A stretch of 64,000 nt of DNA from a virus: positions 62,742 to 126,741 of the IMG/VR virus record IMGVR_UViG_3300049988_000245; one strand, written 5' to 3'. The notes below the pieces were generated by a model. It saw only the letters and a program-made list of their open reading frames with translations. It was not told the DNA's origin and made no database searches. The position numbers and the translations under genes were made by a program. The stretch's first letter is position 1. Every line of letters starts with the position of its first letter. This document shows, in pieces, positions 44,394-63,492 of this stretch.

Positions 44394-45521
44394 TCAGAGC
44401 TTGAAATCCGAGAAAGTACCTGAATCCACGTCCTGCTTGGTCTGACCGATCGTGTATTGCGTGATCTCGGTCTCCTGCGGTGCCACCTGCACCTCAGCAC
44501 CGGAAATCCACTTGGCCGTCCACGGGAGAGGATTAGCCTTCTGCGGGTAGATCGGCGACAGGCCGACCGCGACCAGACGCTTGTTGGCGATCCATTCGAC
44601 ATAGTCGGACAGGAGCGCATAGTTGAGGCCGATCATGCTCCCGTCCTTGAACAGGTACTCGGCCCACTCCTTCTCCTGGGTGACCGCGTCGGAGAACAGC
44701 TTGGTGCATTCCTCCTTGGTCTCCTCGGCGATCTTGGCGAAGTCCGGATCGTCCTGTGGTAGAATCTTGATCAGCGTCTGGGTGGCGGCGAGGTGAAGAT
44801 TCTCGTCGCGGCAGATCAGCTTGATGATCTTCGCGTTGCCTTCCATCCGCTTAACCTCGGCATACGCCCAGGAGCAGGCAAAGCTCACGTAGAACCGAAC
44901 ACCCTCAAGGATGTTCACGCTCATGATGGCCATCCACAGAGCCTTCTTAAGCTCGTATAGGTCCACCTTGACGGATTCGCCGTTGATCGTGTGCGTACCC
45001 TCGCCGAAGAGGTTGTACAGCCCCTCCAGGCGAATCAGGTTGTCATAGTGCTCGGAGATGTCCTTGGCGCAATCGACGATCTCGCCGATGTCCATCATCT
45101 CATCGAACACCTGGGATGGATTCGGGTAGACGTTCCTGATGATGTGGGTGTACGACCGGCTGTGAATCGTCTCCGAGAACGCCCACGTGGTGATGAACGC
45201 CTCTAGCTCGGGGAGCGAGACGATCGGCAGGAACGCGATGTTGGGGGACCGACCCTGAACGGAGTCCAGTAGAATCTGACGCTTCAGATTCGACGTGAAG
45301 ATGTGCCGTTCGTGATCAGTGAGTTCCTTGAAGTCTTTTGCGTCCTTCATCACGTCAACCTCCTGAGGTTGCCAGAAGAACGATAGTTGCTTCTCGGTTA
45401 GTTTGTCGAACTGACGATACTTCATCGTATCGAATCGCTGAACGGAGACGCCTCCATTGGGGTCCAAGAACGCAAGCGCCTGAGTATGGTCTTTACGAGA
45501 ATTTGCATCAAATACGGACAT
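44394..45521 (-). CDS. nrdB: class Ia ribonucleotide reductase beta subunit
   Basis: FFWQPQEV, LDSVQGR, ETIHSRSY, LEGVRFYVSF, RDENLH motifs. Confidence 0.97.
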   Translation of the reverse strand: MSVFDANSRKDHTQALAFLDPNGGVSVQRFDTMKYRQFDKLTEKQLSFFWQPQEVDVMKDAKDFKELTDHERHIFTSNLKRQILLDSVQGRSPNIAFLPIVSLPELEAFITTWAFSETIHSRSYTHIIRNVYPNPSQVFDEMMDIGEIVDCAKDISEHYDNLIRLEGLYNLFGEGTHTINGESVKVDLYELKKALWMAIMSVNILEGVRFYVSFACSWAYAEVKRMEGNAKIIKLICRDENLHLAATQTLIKILPQDDPDFAKIAEETKEECTKLFSDAVTQEKEWAEYLFKDGSMIGLNYALLSDYVEWIANKRLVAVGLSPIYPQKANPLPWTAKWISGAEVQVAPQETEITQYTIGQTKQDVDSGTFSDFKL

Positions 45522-46110
45522 AAGTAACACTCCAATCTTTGCAGTTGCCGCGTTTGGCGGGATAATCTTGTTTCTTCGTCAAGCGATCTCGAAAGGCTTG
45601 ATAAACTTTCGGCCACGCTACCTTAAATCTATGCTCGTTTTCTTGGCACCAAGATTTTAGGCAGTCGGACGCGAAAATCTCGCCCTCCGGTGACCGAATT
45701 TCAGAAGCTTTGCTGTTTGGATTGCTGCTTCCAGTCCGAGACACCCCATACATGCCATTGGCCTCGCCGTAGTGAGGACGGTGATTGGGATGAGTCTTCC
45801 CGTACATGCCATTCCGACACCCTGACACATCCCGTCCGTTGTTCCCTCCATATGCGCTGGGGCTTATGTTGTAGAAATCCGGACTTTTGGCTGCATCATA
45901 GGAATCAAGGTAGTGCTGCTCGCGCTCCTGAATTCGAGAATCATCAACGTATTCAAGAATGATTCGTTCAAATGAATCTCTACCATATTTTATGTAGGCT
46001 CGGCGGAAGTGCTTACCTGATCCGACGTACGAGCTAGAATCTAAGCCAGAATGTCGGCCAATATACTTCTTACCGTCAAGCTTATTAGTCCAAAGATATA
46101 TGAATCCCAT
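45508..46110 (-). CDS. Seg-like GIY-YIG homing endonuclease
   Basis: GFIYLWTN...KYIGRH...YVGSG; NGMYGK repeats; lower GC; overlaps nrdB start. Confidence 0.85.
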   Translation of the reverse strand: MGFIYLWTNKLDGKKYIGRHSGLDSSSYVGSGKHFRRAYIKYGRDSFERIILEYVDDSRIQEREQHYLDSYDAAKSPDFYNISPSAYGGNNGRDVSGCRNGMYGKTHPNHRPHYGEANGMYGVSRTGSSNPNSKASEIRSPEGEIFASDCLKSWCQENEHRFKVAWPKVYQAFRDRLTKKQDYPAKRGNCKDWSVTYVRI

Positions 46111-46163
46111 GAACGGATGATACCAAAGGGTATCACCCGTTCTCAACTTCGAAATGTCGAGAC

Positions 46164-46388
46164 TTAGAGGGTCTCGAACTCGAAGCGATTCTTGATCGAC
46201 TCGTTGAGGAACTTGGTCTTGCTGTCCGCCGACTCGAAGTTGCTTGCCGTCGAAGCATCGACGTTGTTGTACCGGTAGGTCTTGCCGCCGATGAAGGCGA
46301 CTTCGAGCGTCTGCGCGGACGAATCGTAGGCGATGCGGTCGATGTTACCGCTGTTGAAATCCGTGCCATTGGTCTTGGTGAAGGACAT
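46164..46388 (-). CDS. KTSC domain protein
   Basis: SGNIDRIAYD...TLEVAFIGGKTYRY.NV...F..ADSK.KF.N..IK. Confidence 0.85.
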   Translation of the reverse strand: MSFTKTNGTDFNSGNIDRIAYDSSAQTLEVAFIGGKTYRYNNVDASTASNFESADSKTKFLNESIKNRFEFETL

Positions 46389-46503
46389 CTGAATCTCTCT
46401 CGTATAAGGATTCGACGAACAAATTTGGTTCGACGAAAATACCAATTGCATGGTTAACGGGTGTTTGGCAAGGTGGACGTACGAAAATCAGAAAGGTTCT
46501 AAT

Positions 46504-47355
46504 ATGCCGTTTAACCGTCGCGGGATTCTCGCTGGCCTCCTGGGAACGCCCCTGGGGATCACCGCACTGAAGGCGATGCCGCTTCCGGCAGAGACCCAGA
46601 AGGCCATCGCGTTCACCCCCGAGGTGCAGAAGGCGGTCGAGAACATTCCCCCGCTCCCGACCCCGAAACGCAATCTGCATCCGTTATTCGGATTCCAGAC
46701 GATCGATGCCGAGCTTGGGTTCGCCTATACCCTGCGCAGCCGATACTCAGATGCGGTGACCCTTGCGAATCCTGAGCCGCGCATCTCGATCCAGATTAAC
46801 AAGGTGGTTGCTGGGGGTACATATTACCCGACGATGGACGCGGCCGAGGACGCGATCTTCAGTAAGTTCGCCATCACCCATCGCGAGGTGAGAAGCCCAG
46901 ACAACCCCGAGCATACCAAGTTTCACCTCGTGCGGGCGGCGAACCGGATCGCCCAGACGACCCGGCGCGGCATGGGTAACGTCATTCTCGTCCATCGGGA
47001 TGACCTGCATCTACTCGATACCCCGTGGGTGGCCAACGTGATCCCCGAGCGAATCGGGCGGTGGTCGAACGTCGGGTTCACCCACAACCGAGTCTCCCAG
47101 GTCTGGGTCACCGACCGCCGTGTTCCTGCGATCCCGCACGGGAACGCGCTTGTGGGTTATCGCGGATCGGAGTTAGACGCCCCTGCCGTTCTCACGTATC
47201 ATCCGGGCTTTGGATACAGCTACGCGATGAACGAGAAGCCGGAAACCTACATGCACGTAGTCGGACTGACTGTGAAAGCCCGAGCGCCCCATACGGACGA
47301 GGCTATATGGGCGGAAGAGAAGCGGGGTGCCGTACGCCCCGTTCGCGCCGCATGA
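46504..47355 (+). CDS. Tat-signal protein carrying T4-like major capsid (gp23) fragments
   Basis: N-terminus NRRGILAGLLG; GFQTI....GFAYTLRSRY; RAANRIAQTTRRGMGNVILV; LVGYRGSELDA. Confidence 0.75.
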   Translation: MPFNRRGILAGLLGTPLGITALKAMPLPAETQKAIAFTPEVQKAVENIPPLPTPKRNLHPLFGFQTIDAELGFAYTLRSRYSDAVTLANPEPRISIQINKVVAGGTYYPTMDAAEDAIFSKFAITHREVRSPDNPEHTKFHLVRAANRIAQTTRRGMGNVILVHRDDLHLLDTPWVANVIPERIGRWSNVGFTHNRVSQVWVTDRRVPAIPHGNALVGYRGSELDAPAVLTYHPGFGYSYAMNEKPETYMHVVGLTVKARAPHTDEAIWAEEKRGAVRPVRAA

Positions 47356-47546
47356 AGCGGCCTTCCTTAGAGAAGATCGCCCAGGCCCTTCCTCGCTCGC
47401 GTATCATGGCAGGCGAGTACACCTACCCGTACGCCGAGGGTGGGCCTCAGCGGCGGGTCTTCTACGCAGATGTGGGCACGCTTCCCCCGGAGGCGGCCAA
47501 CCGATTCATCAAATCGCTCATGGAGAAGTACGATGGAACGTCGTAG
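47352..47546 (+). CDS. 64-aa protein resembling a T4-like portal (gp20) clip segment
   Basis: PQRRVFYADVGTLPPEAANRFIKSLMEKY vs gp20-family PERRxFYIDVGNLP..KA..Y...M; ATGA-coupled. Confidence 0.7.
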   Translation: MKRPSLEKIAQALPRSRIMAGEYTYPYAEGGPQRRVFYADVGTLPPEAANRFIKSLMEKYDGTS

Positions 47547-48069
47547 CCTTCTCGCGGCCGGTGCTGCCGCGATCACCGGTCTGTTCGGCGCCAAGTCGGC
47601 TCAGGCGGCGCCCTCGGGCGCTCTCACTCTGGACGAAGCCACGCGGATCGTCGTCGGCAACGTTCGTAATCCGCCTGCCCCGGAGGAGATTCAGCGTCTC
47701 ATCGCGGGGATCAATATGCAGGTAATGAACCGGCTTACCCAAGCTGGCATCGTTGACCCGCAATACGTAATGACGAGCGCCGTGGTTCGCTTCCGGGGGC
47801 AGGTGGTCGAGGCCAAGACACGTAGGCTCTCTTCGCGTTACACGTTCGGAGAGAATGTCCCGCCGATCGTGCAGGCCGAGGTCGAAGCCACGTTGGTCGA
47901 GAGCATCGTGCAGGAGATCACCGCAGAGTTGGTCCGGCCCGAGAACAAGGGTATCCAGTATTGTCCATACGAGTTGGTCACCAGTTCCGGGGTCATCCTC
48001 GATCCGGAAACGCTCAACCCCACGATATTCTTTCTGACCCGTTTTGGGACCTTCGTGAAAGCCGCATAG
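47533..48069 (+). CDS. Tat-signal protein carrying complementary gp23 fragments
   Basis: MERRSLLAAGAAAITGLFGAKSAQA; QVVEAKTRRLSSRYTF; QEITAEL; YCPY..VTSSGVILDPETLNP...LTRFG. Confidence 0.8.
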   Translation: MERRSLLAAGAAAITGLFGAKSAQAAPSGALTLDEATRIVVGNVRNPPAPEEIQRLIAGINMQVMNRLTQAGIVDPQYVMTSAVVRFRGQVVEAKTRRLSSRYTFGENVPPIVQAEVEATLVESIVQEITAELVRPENKGIQYCPYELVTSSGVILDPETLNPTIFFLTRFGTFVKAA

Positions 48070-48101
48070 AGTCCTGGCATCCGACCACACATGAGGAAGC
48101 G

Positions 48102-48509
48102 TTGGGCGTTCTCTTGAAGAATGCCCAACGCGACAAGCCGCGTTCGCGCATCGAACAGGTCGTTGAATGTATCAACCGGCGTGTTTTCGAAAATGTTCGG
48201 GAGATCATCAACCCACGTCTGGTCATGGTCGAGCGCGTCATGATGCTCGATTGGGCCGTCGAGGCTCGGACTCGGAATCTTCGGACACACATGGACTGCG
48301 CCGATTTTCGCCAGAGCGGCTACGTCCCCGAGATGATCGAGGCGGCCATTGACGGTATCACGGGTGAAATTCTGGAGATGCAGGCCGGGACGAGTTTATC
48401 GTACTGTCCCTACGCGCTGGTGACCGGGCACGAGCAAATTGTCGATCCGACCACCTCTGGTGAATACGTCTATTTCCGTACCTGTTACGGATTGTACGAG
48501 CTACCTTAG
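48102..48509 (+). CDS. paralog of 47533..48069 without signal peptide
   Basis: VEARTRNLRT, ITGEI, YCPY...IVDP...FRTCYG; start uncertain (TTG 48102 with GAGG; similarity begins ~48066). Confidence 0.65.
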   Translation: MGVLLKNAQRDKPRSRIEQVVECINRRVFENVREIINPRLVMVERVMMLDWAVEARTRNLRTHMDCADFRQSGYVPEMIEAAIDGITGEILEMQAGTSLSYCPYALVTGHEQIVDPTTSGEYVYFRTCYGLYELP

Positions 48510-49209: not shown

Positions 49210-49419
49210 TTACCCCCATGACATTTTGAATTCCAGGGCTGTCGTATCGTTTTTGATCAAGACATTTCCACAAAGTGTAAGTTCCCAATCAAGAAATTCT
49301 ATTCCTACGTGCTCTTTCAACCACGAGCGAATATTATATCGATCAATCTCAGATTCTGAAGTGAACATGTGTGGTAAGTCAACGTTGTGATTTGCAATTT
49401 TGTGATATCGAAACCTCAT
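49210..49419 (-). CDS. FKMRW-family mini-protein
   Basis: WLKEHVG...DTTALEFKMSWG. Confidence 0.8.
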   Translation of the reverse strand: MRFRYHKIANHNVDLPHMFTSESEIDRYNIRSWLKEHVGIEFLDWELTLCGNVLIKNDTTALEFKMSWG

Positions 49420-49673
49420 CCCCACCTCACGCGAAACGCCGTGGCATCGACATCTGTCGAGATGTCGATGGTCGTCATGTCGGCGCGCCAGCGGGGTACG
49501 ACCGGCTTCACCCCGTAGGCGTAGTCGGGCGGGCCGAACTGCTCGCGGCACCAATGGATCGCCTCGATCATGTTGGCGTTCGTGGTGAAATAGGTTGGGG
49601 AAACAATCATCTCGAAACCGAACGGGTATTTGGTTCCCTTCAGCCGATAAAGCGGTTTGAACTTGATCTCCAT
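49416..49673 (-). CDS. FKMRW-family mini-protein
   Basis: WCREQFG...DVDATAFRVRWG. Confidence 0.8.
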   Translation of the reverse strand: MEIKFKPLYRLKGTKYPFGFEMIVSPTYFTTNANMIEAIHWCREQFGPPDYAYGVKPVVPRWRADMTTIDISTDVDATAFRVRWG

Positions 49674-49921
49674 CAGCACCACCGCATTTTGAAGGCGAGC
49701 GCATCGGGCTCATTTTGGAATACAATATGGAATCCGTTGCACCGGAACGCTTCGCTTTGGTATCCGATTTGATCCATGCACCAGCGTAAGGCGAGGTCGC
49801 GCGTCTCGTAGTAGCTATCTCCGTCGAAGACATGCTGTTTTAGAGAGAACTGATACGGGTAGGTTAGTTTCCGCCCTTTCCGGTCCTCGAATACAGTCGG
49901 CTCTTGAAACCAGTCCACCAT
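49673..49921 (-). CDS. FKMRW-family mini-protein
   Basis: WCMDQIG...EPDALAFKMRWC. Confidence 0.8.
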   Translation of the reverse strand: MVDWFQEPTVFEDRKGRKLTYPYQFSLKQHVFDGDSYYETRDLALRWCMDQIGYQSEAFRCNGFHIVFQNEPDALAFKMRWC

Positions 49922-50187
49922 CAGCAGTACCTCAACTTGAATTCGAGCGCCTGTGGGAGGTCTCGCATATAAATGGTTCCACGGTGTCCGACGCGCCAAT
50001 CCTTTCCGTGCGGGCCGACGTTCTCGACCAGCCATTCGGCGATGAAATCGGGTGTGTAATCGGCACCGGCCCCAATATCAGGATTGGTGGTTTCAACGCA
50101 GCCCGTTCCGAACACCAGCCGATGATGGCGTGGTTGGAACATGTGCTCGTTCGCGTTCACCACGTGATGGTATGAGATTCTGGTCAT
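49921..50187 (-). CDS. FKMRW-family mini-protein
   Basis: WLVENVG...LPQALEFKLRYC. Confidence 0.8.
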   Translation of the reverse strand: MTRISYHHVVNANEHMFQPRHHRLVFGTGCVETTNPDIGAGADYTPDFIAEWLVENVGPHGKDWRVGHRGTIYMRDLPQALEFKLRYC

Positions 50188-62160: not shown

Positions 62161-63492
62161 TCAGATATCCCTCTTCTTTGCCCAATCGGGTGTCTCAATA
62201 CCACCGGAGATGTCGTGTATTTGGTTGCGAACCTCGTCGCCACTAACCTTCCCGTCTTGATAAGAATGCCATAGACTCTTGATCGTATCAAGATGCTTGG
62301 CCTTTCCATTGCCATTACCGTTAAAAAGTCCCTTCGCGGCTTCCCAGGTAATCGACTGCATCTCGCGCGGCAGGATGTTACGCTCCTTCGCGGCGCGGCG
62401 GTAGGCATCCGCATAGAGCGGGTACGTCCCGTGGACGCCCGTGATGATCGAGCCCTTTGCCGGGGTGAACGGGGCGCCACCCTGGGCGGTCGCCGGGAGG
62501 GTGTTCTTGAAGTTGTGTGCGACCTCGGTGGTGTTGCCACCGAGGGGGTGCAGAAGGCCAGCGGCGACCGCGTGCGTGTCAATGGTCACGTCGCCGTGGT
62601 GGCCGTTGGGATCGACGATGTTGTTGTAGAAGTTTCGAACCTTGTGACGCTCACCCATGAGGCGAGAAATCTTGTCGATATCCGAATTCGCTTCGATCGC
62701 ACCGATGGCCTTGCTGATCTCCGCAACGGAGCCCCAGCGGAGCTTGGCGTGCTGGTCCGCGTTGTTCGCACCCGCCCCGTAGGCGTCACCGTTCGTGTAG
62801 GTGCGTCCCAGGCGGCCCTCAGGCTCCACCATGGGATAGTAGCTCGGATTGTGAGCCTCGTCGTACGTGCGAATCCAGGCGGCCTTGTGATCGATGTCCA
62901 CGAGCTTTTCCAGCGGTAGGCCACGGATGGCCTCATGGATCGGCTTGTTCCGATCGTTGTGCCAGATACGAAGGGCGGTCTCTTCCATTTCCGGAGTCCA
63001 CGGGGCGTCGCGACGGTTCAGATAGGCGTCGAGCACGCGGTCGCCGATAGAGGCGTTCTCGTGCCATGTCTTCTGCGGACTAAGCGCCGCGTAGACTGCC
63101 GCGACCGCCGCATGGGGGAGGCCGTACTCGTCCGCACGATCCTTGGTCAGCTTGTTCGCGCCGTCGTACCAAAGACGGGCACGGGCGCGCTGATCTTCCG
63201 GCATCTTGTCGTGAAGGAACAGGAGGTTGTCCTTGACGTGGTCGATGAACTTATTCGCCACACGCTCGGACTTGCCCCGGCGATCGTTATGCGGGAGCGC
63301 CGCGTACTTTTTCACCAAGCCGATGTTGTGGTCGAACGACTTCGGATCAGCCTTGGCCGAATCCAAGTCCACAGTCAGATCATGACGGATGTCATCGACC
63401 TTCTTCGAGGTCGGCATACGGGTGGAGATTCGATTAGGATTCTGGGTGACCGCTTCGATCAACCCTTCGATCAGCTTAATAAAATTGCGCAT
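62161..63492 (-). CDS. putative HhH-glycosylase-like protein with head-targeting-like N-terminus
   Basis: WY, AALSPQ, KVRNFYNNI, VTIDTHA, AYRRAA...MQSITW; starts MRNFIKLIE. Confidence 0.6.
   Translation of the reverse strand: MRNFIKLIEGLIEAVTQNPNRISTRMPTSKKVDDIRHDLTVDLDSAKADPKSFDHNIGLVKKYAALPHNDRRGKSERVANKFIDHVKDNLLFLHDKMPEDQRARARLWYDGANKLTKDRADEYGLPHAAVAAVYAALSPQKTWHENASIGDRVLDAYLNRRDAPWTPEMEETALRIWHNDRNKPIHEAIRGLPLEKLVDIDHKAAWIRTYDEAHNPSYYPMVEPEGRLGRTYTNGDAYGAGANNADQHAKLRWGSVAEISKAIGAIEANSDIDKISRLMGERHKVRNFYNNIVDPNGHHGDVTIDTHAVAAGLLHPLGGNTTEVAHNFKNTLPATAQGGAPFTPAKGSIITGVHGTYPLYADAYRRAAKERNILPREMQSITWEAAKGLFNGNGNGKAKHLDTIKSLWHSYQDGKVSGDEVRNQIHDISGGIETPDWAKKRDI

Follow-up and report, generated by a model that had tools for sequence, protein, structure and literature searches.

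Capsid and portal pieces with predicted twin-arginine leaders in a four-gene operon of a T4-like jumbo phage record

Why would a phage carry, away from any head module, a compact set of genes that read like pieces of a T4-like capsid and portal, two of them opening with what looks like an export signal? The question is raised by IMG/VR record IMGVR_UViG_3300049988_000245, of which we analysed positions 62,742 to 126,741 (64,000 nucleotides, hereafter the window, to which all coordinates refer unless stated). The whole record is linear, 265,895 bases long, 56% G+C and estimated to be 57% complete. Judging by its long replication and nucleotide genes, and by the capsid type that the fragments resemble, it groups with the T4-like jumbo phages, among them Phosso of Sinorhizobium and XacN1 of Xanthomonas. 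The four packed + strand genes in question, here open reading frames (ORFs) 1 to 4, their capsid and portal motifs and their orientation opposite to the neighbours were all found where an earlier model-made reading of the DNA, the first-pass annotation, had placed them. On the matches given below, the four genes are intact, coupled and derived from the capsid protein gp23 and the portal protein gp20.

The four genes and the head proteins they resemble

ORF1 (46504-47355, + strand, 283 residues) is followed by ORF2 (47352-47546, +, 64 residues), whose start overlaps the ORF1 stop, and by ORF3 (47533-48069, +, 178 residues), which shares 14 nucleotides with ORF2. ORF4 (48102-48509, +, 135 residues) begins 32 nucleotides past ORF3, at a TTG start 7 nucleotides after GAGGAAG. 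A ribosome-binding-like site, AAAGG (46492..46496, +), lies 7 nucleotides before ORF1; a promoter scan found no sigma-70-type promoter upstream of ORF1 on the + strand, and no terminator excess. In-frame codon scores of the four ORFs (0.09-0.19) lie within the range of the record's 30 longest ORFs and are negative in the other two frames, and G+C content at third codon positions also matches that of the long genes. Matches to the Pfam Gp23 family exceeded the curated cut-off of 24.4 bits for ORF1 (E 7.7e-6, 26 bits) and ORF3 (E 5.5e-10, 39.6 bits) and fell below it for ORF4 (E 0.046, 13.6 bits); ORF2 exceeded the cut-off of Portal_T4 (E 2.1e-5, 23.9 bits against 22.9). PHROGs and Pfam agree on gp23 for ORF1, ORF3 and, weakly, ORF4, and on the portal for ORF2. 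With hhalign to the capsid at 98.6-99.8% and the portal match of ORF2, the derivation from gp23 and gp20 that the first-pass annotation had proposed is supported.

How much of the capsid does each piece keep? Domains were numbered on the 408-residue Phosso capsid protein, and the capsid alignment was built from ORF3-profile hits plus Phosso, so that it favours ORF3 and is independent of ORF1. ORF1 consists of a twin-arginine leader, a low-complexity linker and a gp23 derivative with both E-loop strands, the A-domain and the C-terminal strand. Its residues 54-260 are collinear with Phosso 85-405 (hhalign 98.6%, E 8.9e-16), and the same blocks are seen by BLASTP. Within this range, Phosso ~175-235 (a P-domain strand and the spine helix) has shrunk to half and the P hairpin at ~348-372 is gone; ORF1 is not a complete gp23 subunit, being without the P-domain strand, most of the spine helix and the P hairpin. 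An Atlas model of ORF1 compares with Gp23 at a template modelling (TM) score of 0.51 over residues 53-261, and our own model from a 3-sequence alignment, a depth too low, had a predicted local distance difference test score (pLDDT) of 33. Residues 51-84 also align weakly (E about 1) with T4 gp23 101-134, a stretch that overlaps the Gol peptide. A word-index search gave two ORF1 orthologues, 63% and 73% (partial) identical. Among cultured phages ORF1 had no match, and the matches of ORF3 were to full capsid proteins only.

ORF3 has kept the other part. Its family aligns with Phosso 34-386 apart from two deletions (hhalign 99.8%), by which the E-loop (~107-168) has become a short turn and the A-domain (~219-346) a 5-residue link; on T4 gp23 it matches 252-307 and about 446-479. 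The first-pass annotation had read ORF3 as a P-domain mini-protein, which is right for the P-domain and needs the correction that the N-arm helices are retained as well. ORF4, described there as a signal-less paralogue of ORF3, is just that, a leaderless and more diverged P-only copy (tblastn E 2e-11, 26%). Neither is a complete gp23 subunit, both being without E-loop and A-domain. A model of ORF3 from a 36-sequence alignment reached a pLDDT of 88 and a predicted TM score of 0.80. In a fold search of 48,161 solved chains, ranks 1-37 were all HK97-fold shells, with T4 gp24 (1yue) the best match (Z 7.5, root-mean-square deviation 3.7, 128 aligned residues); a Z of 7.5 is modest, and the evidence is the consistency of the match list. 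The P-only unit is thus modelled as folding by itself, with an HK97 fold.

ORF2 is leaderless and corresponds to T4 gp20 ~249-308, that is, the end of the stem helix, the first clip strand, the terminase-facing tip and the clip helix. Its residues 6-60 are 36% identical to a phage portal, with a firm match over residues 32-60; portals from other groups of T4-like phages are the closest to it. It scored 32.8 bits against a clip profile on which shuffled sequences reached at most 9.0. With 64 residues it is without the rest of the portal needed for a 12-mer (wing, crown and second stem helix). According to PMC4493910, the gp20 clip spans 279-358, and terminase is proposed to contact it at the tip (291-296). 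The first-pass annotation was therefore correct about the portal origin and too generous in calling ORF2 a portal clip, since it has no more of the stem than its end and stops roughly 30 residues into the 80-residue clip. A word-index search for a stand-alone relative returned no candidate other than ORF2 itself.

The same annotation had suggested that the capsid protein was split into complementary E-loop/A-domain and P-domain halves. The retained segments are indeed almost exactly complementary, at four junctions between ORF1 and ORF3 (hhalign). That the two halves work together was not borne out, because the P-only unit is predicted to fold alone, occurs as one to three tandem units and has no ORF1-like partner in three of three other partial records. 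Cuts at natural domain borders would give such complementarity without any binding.

Leaders, relatives and strain variants

Export of ORF1 and ORF3 by the twin-arginine translocation (Tat) pathway is predicted by motif. The putative ORF1 leader (46504..46575, +) reads N-R-R-G-I-L followed by 16 uncharged residues, a Lys and a possible cut after Ala24; that of ORF3 (47533..47607, +) reads E-R-R-S-L-L followed by 16 uncharged residues, a Lys and an A-Q-A cut after Ala25. The former is kept in orthologue P0006 and the latter in P0002, and a strain variant of ORF3 reads R-R-S-F-I. Leaders were called by a TatFind-type rule. Applied to all ATG starts of the 266-kilobase record, the rule gave only four hits (ORF1, ORF3 and two 57-codon frames), which argues that the leaders are not chance; a looser rule gave eight of 319 genes. 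Tabulated over ORF1, ORF3 and their relatives, 16 leaders place two adjacent Arg no later than residue 12 and have an uncharged run of 14-30 residues and, in 13 cases, an A-x-A-like end. We looked for a second transmembrane or hydrophobic segment after the leaders and found none.

The P-only architecture is not confined to this operon. A HMMER scan of 1.84 billion representatives with ORF3, P0002 and ORF4 as query gave 104 hits. Among the 105 proteins classed, 54 had no scored A-domain; four C-terminal-only fragments and two proteins with a degenerate A-domain (P0025 and P0077) were set aside, leaving 48 P-only clusters including ORF3, ORF4 and P0002. Single units make up 36 of them, eight have two or three tandem units and four have extensions. 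Except for the orthologue P0002 (58%), they are 20-37% identical to ORF3; a word-index search likewise gave one ORF3 orthologue (58%). A twin-arginine leader was found in 13 of the 48 against one of the 53 hits that keep an A-domain (P0025). Many of these 53 are themselves shortened capsid paralogues, giving a series from whole capsid through E-loop-less forms to P-only. P0025 (319 residues) has a capsid fold from which only the E-loop is missing; in front of it is a twin-arginine leader, after which a Cys occupies a lipoprotein-like position. It is possibly an intermediate form. None of the tandem proteins (P0011, P0014, P0015, P0021, P0039, P0047, P0052 and P0063) has a leader. On a quickly built tree of the P-only proteins, which is poorly resolved and may include leader columns, the leader needs nine label changes against a shuffled mean of 11.6, with 29 of 500 shuffles as low; the median end branch is 1.23 changes per column.

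Where do these relatives lie? One ORF1 and one ORF3 orthologue are neighbours by locus tag on a contig of 7,412 bases, where no ORF2 is called in between. P-only gene DNA was also found in three further phages, leader-bearing in L107/L108 (an identical gene) and L109, and without a leader, at a contig end, in L057. The L109 gene is 51-55% identical to that of L107/L108; against L107, dN is 0.37 and dS 1.44 (dN/dS about 0.26), with silent sites near saturation. It stands in record G001, a T4-like phage of 39% G+C, between two genes for DNA-repair nuclease subunits and ~25 kilobases from an intact gp23. Because G001 has both, the P-only gene is an accessory and not a capsid replacement, and it often occurs without ORF1: no ORF1-like or portal piece was found in the three other P-only records, all partial (90, 20 and 14 kilobases). 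The last hairpin of L109 resembles the capsid type of its own phage and that of ORF3 the Phosso type, which suggests that P-only genes have more than one origin. The cassette is not found in the four complete cultured relatives Phosso, XacN1, PA5oct and 121Q. P0016, with a leader, and P0019, without, have a longest contig of 9,114 bases each and are perhaps a second pair of the ORF3/ORF4 type.

Capsid piece, portal piece and leader have been joined more than once. The N-termini of P0049 and P0104 are clip tips fused to a P-only unit, scoring 14.1 and 9.9 bits against a five-sequence clip profile for which the best of 2180 shuffles reached 9.0; P0104 is marginal alone but is a relative of P0049. 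The gp23-like P0087 ends (residues 360-419) in a portal channel-loop piece (37 bits). P0065, a shortened gp23 paralogue, shows a weak portal piece at residues 22-57 (4.9 bits). A further joint is seen in a close strain, in which the unit 47457..47589 (+) is doubled. In run X3, position 47589 leads back to 47457 through 39 letters, so that ORF3 codons 1-19 continue in frame through 13 further codons into ORF2 from codon 36 onward. Both sides of the joint fall on codon borders. Translation by hand showed no stop in the 13 inserted codons, which include A-Q-A and finish with P-R-R, continuing the ORF2 motif. Runs X4 and X6, from the same study (three runs with X3), carry the same letters as loose ends, and the shared leader contig has a depth of 14 against 6-7 around it. 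The close strain thus most likely has an extra leader-plus-clip-tip gene between ORF2 and ORF3, pieced together from contigs none of which spans the whole arrangement, the openness of the second copy being only partly read. Because 12 of 91 letters differ in the second clip copy, it is not a fresh slip. The window itself does not have the doubled arrangement.

Strains were compared in eight of 20 listed metagenome runs, from five studies; all counts that follow are among the differences listed (40 of 65 and 40 of 71). ORF1 is under purifying selection, with 13 silent and eight changing codons in X10 (pN/pS, the ratio of changing to silent differences per site, 0.22; P 0.0006) and seven and five in a silage strain (0.25). 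ORF2 has one silent and no changing difference. ORF3 has one silent and five changing codons, and ORF4 eight and 15 (0.61) with two in-frame 3-nucleotide deletions; neither gives a purifying signal, and the counts fit either relaxed or driven change. Among the differences listed, no stop or frameshift was seen in the eight runs. Signs of decaying pseudogenes, which the first-pass annotation had named as a way in which its idea could fail, were looked for and did not appear, given the ORF1 ratios of 0.22-0.25, the P-only dN/dS of about 0.26 and the lack of stops.

What the pieces might do

None of the pieces is expected to build a shell. The P-only proteins are without the capsomer-forming A-domain, ORF1 is without the P-domain and ORF2 is a sliver of a 12-mer; each, as judged by its alignment, retains a conserved surface of the kind that sensors read. 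We tentatively favour the reading that the four genes are an accessory operon of domain-deleted head copies, acting as baits for host capsid and portal sensors rather than as virion parts. It is favoured because the pieces cannot build a head, lie outside any head module, are absent from the complete relatives and change fast; the fast change of the P-only family, ORF3 and ORF4 fits a role in conflict. Tat transports folded proteins and can carry a bound partner, so a leader-bearing bait could fold in the cytoplasm, bind a sensor and then keep it at the membrane or remove it from the cytoplasm; the leaderless ORF2 and ORF4 would compete for sensors within the cytoplasm. The surface contacted in the CapRel model is the P-domain sheet with the spine helix of the capsid (PMC9712102), Avs7 mainly grips the A-domain with further P and E-loop contacts (10.64898/2026.01.04.697583) and portals are also sensed, by several systems (PMC13728456). 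A doubtful variant, which would be a new class of phage counter-defence, holds that head-shell and portal proteins have been cut into separate sensor epitopes and given Tat leaders, that ORF1 and ORF3 show the whole surface of a capsid subunit in non-polymerising form, and that Tat drags sensors or rival head subunits out of the cytoplasm.

Several points weigh against the bait reading. Binding of a bait and rescue from defence are predictions, and a fragment could trigger a sensor rather than block it. The known sensors of capsid and portal act in the cytoplasm, and exporting a bait that has bound nothing would take it away from them. The share of amino-acid-changing codons in ORF3 (5 of 6) and ORF4 (15 of 23) fits relaxed selection equally well. 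Leaders are missing from 35 of the 48 P-only clusters and, as annotated, from the ORF1 orthologue P0005. The export signals claimed in the first-pass annotation stand as motifs (the twin arginine, the uncharged h-region and the cleavage site are present in ORF1 and ORF3). The curated Pfam and NCBIfam Tat models gave no hit for either; homologues scored below the cut-off (P0060, E 6.6e-4; P0013, E 0.015), and Atlas feature neighbours with Tat signals, at 0.78-0.82, are a lead only. Finally, the sensors cited above were studied with other phage groups.

Could the target be another phage instead? The pieces would then be dominant-negative weapons that bind gp23, portal or terminase of rival T4-like phages, tether or export them and poison assembly or packaging. 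Assembly of T4 heads begins at the inner membrane, and terminase docks on the clip tip (PMC4493910), exactly the tip that ORF2 retains. ORF2 is also closest to portals from other groups of T4-like phages, and the capsid homologue Ccm redirects its helper phage (PMC8569155). Yet pieces of the phage's own capsid type would poison its own assembly first, and their divergence from any capsid weakens co-assembly, which makes this rather unlikely. No mimicry at all is needed if HK97-derived folds have been reused as periplasmic or membrane-bound proteins, for superinfection exclusion, lysis timing or receptor masking. The leaders, with n, h and c regions and A-x-A-like cuts in 13 of 16, and the lack of a second hydrophobic segment, as expected of soluble periplasmic proteins, are in line with this; it leaves unexplained why the same leader sits on three unrelated head pieces (P, A and portal tip) and why the most conserved capsid motifs persist, and we hold it to be unlikely.

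A role in the phage's own head assembly, in which ORF1 and ORF3 re-form an HK97 subunit and act together with the clip piece to fix the prohead to the membrane or set its size there, would make sense of the four complementary junctions, of the adjacent orthologues on the second contig and of P0025, a leader on a nearly whole capsid fold. The four complete cultured relatives do without the cassette, though; the operon has nucleotide-metabolism genes and small accessory genes around it, the other P-only genes stand without a partner nearby and, as said, deletions at domain borders would be complementary without binding. We consider such a role improbable. That the genes are near-neutral recombination debris, chimeric small genes that these jumbo phages spawn from conserved core motifs and mostly keep weakly, seems very unlikely to us. 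In Phosso, as in XacN1, two or more unrelated small genes contain a short gp23 motif, a gp23 piece in the record is fused to a member of a large family of small genes, ORF3 and ORF4 lack a purifying signal between strains and the word-index search gave no stand-alone relative of ORF2. Against this stand the purifying selection on ORF1 (13 silent and eight changing codons, P 0.0006), a P-only fold kept whole across 48 clusters, frames that stay open with indels in frame, and a leader that recurs on three different pieces.

Does anything comparable exist? The likeness to gp23 and gp24 (PF07068; PDB 6uzc, 5vf3 and 1yue) is in sequence blocks and the HK97 fold, with gp24 the best fold match of ORF3; theirs are whole shell-building subunits, whereas the genes here each lack a whole domain set and two have twin-arginine leaders. 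Similarly, ORF2 shares with T4 gp20 (PF07230; PDB 3ja7 and 6uzc) the stem end, clip strand, terminase-facing tip and clip helix, but covers 64 of about 520-580 residues, has neither wing, crown nor second stem helix and holds about a third of the clip. The leaders resemble those of bacterial Tat substrates (PF10518) in an R-R-x-hydrophobic motif near the start, an Ala/Gly-rich uncharged run and a basic residue before an A-x-A-like cut; they differ in scoring below the family cut-off and in a virion-derived passenger whose export is predicted only. SaPIbov5 Ccm is likewise an accessory HK97-fold homologue used in conflict (PMC8569155), and its structure (PDB 7rwz) ranked 19th in the ORF3 fold search. 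Ccm, however, is a near-complete fold, encoded by a satellite, built into capsids and without export leader or portal piece; the genes here are domain-deleted and lie in a 266-kilobase jumbo record with its own replication genes.

Lit/Gol is among the defences that sense capsids or portals. The surfaces kept by the pieces are those that such systems read, among them CapRel (PMC9712102) and Avs7 and other Avs (10.64898/2026.01.04.697583). DSAD1, a phage decoy or competitor anti-defence protein, is described in PMC11087589 and is a precedent for a competitor that blocks the sensor of a structural protein. Unlike the window genes, the known inhibitors that we found are neither domain-deleted copies of the trigger nor export-tagged. 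The operon architecture matches no described system: as the first-pass annotation had supposed, our literature search, which did not cover subscription journals and supplements, found no paper on export-tagged or domain-deleted accessory genes from capsid or portal.

Capsid and portal belong to the main triggers of bacterial antiviral sensors and are hard for phages to mutate. If the bait reading is true, a modular kit of export-tagged, domain-deleted copies would be a general way round this difficulty, or else, if the target is a rival, a new form of phage-against-phage interference; it would also be the first Tat export of virion-derived proteins, as far as our searches reach. Independently of function, the ORF3 family would offer a naturally occurring minimal P-domain of the HK97 type, one that needs neither E-loop nor A-domain to fold and is useful for work on capsid evolution and assembly. 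The cassette makes a compact test case: a single operon combines P, A/E and clip pieces, both leader-bearing and leaderless, and of two strains one has a leader-plus-clip gene that the other lacks. At present such genes carry the wrong labels of 'major capsid protein' or 'hypothetical'; what is added here is the P-only family with its modelled fold, its exact complement in ORF1, the clip fusions and the strain-level leader-plus-clip gene.

Genomic setting and side observations

The operon lies among nucleotide-metabolism and small accessory genes, flanked by - strand genes. To its left are the KTSC gene and nrdB/GIY-YIG, and to its right is a small gene. The KTSC-domain gene (46164-46451, -; Pfam E 1e-18) is divergent from ORF1 and shares with it a short upstream spacer. 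A GIY-YIG homing endonuclease gene (45508-46146, -) overlaps the nrdB start two genes from the cassette, and could mobilise or amplify the region. Elsewhere in the record, long genes that we recognised by eye presumably encode a single-strand binding protein, RecA, UvsW, nrdA/B and a topoisomerase.

The whole record was searched for intact gp23, gp20 and large terminase, and none was found; nor is there a head module near the cassette or in the 57% of the genome at hand. The first-pass annotation had proposed to locate intact gp23 and gp20 elsewhere in the genome; four of four complete relatives tested (Phosso, XacN1, PA5oct and 121Q) have both, and this record has neither. Because the record is incomplete and also lacks the terminase, and because the complete relatives have both genes, the head module is most likely in the missing part. 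A search for a prohead protease gave no match in the record, and none in the controls either.

Nearly identical DNA turns up in leaf and silage metagenomes, with no RNA dataset among those listed. Searches for related cassette DNA found none from viral contigs (with ORF1, ORF3 and P0089), metagenomes (ORF1 alignment) or GTDB genomes (P0005). Degenerate junction patterns returned nearly all chance matches (one of 6 real; one of 74 real, on the same contig; 0 of 81) and were set aside.

Small genes are abundant in this phage. At least 32 in the whole record have a common C-terminal motif of the type F..E.DA..FK.RW and form a greatly expanded paralogue family, with examples in the window in the 35094-34297 region and at 49416-49682 and 49921-50187. 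This family also takes up capsid pieces, in Phosso (L022) and in the record itself, where a fifth gp23-derived gene without a leader (L001:1480-1941; G000:C1:175996-176457; Pfam E 6e-13) combines two elements of gp23, its N-terminal helix and its first E-loop strand, with the C-terminal domain shared by the family. The apparent full-length matches of this gp23 fragment in PA5oct and 121Q were rejected as stand-alone relatives, being the intact capsid genes of those phages. In Phosso and XacN1, isolated short gp23 motifs are fused to unrelated sequence in small genes (L019, L020, L021, L022 and L197). The record further holds a gene of 295 residues with an R-R-containing, lipoprotein-like leader (G000:C1:160727-161614, +), next to a gene that we take by eye to be glutathionylspermidine-synthase-like.

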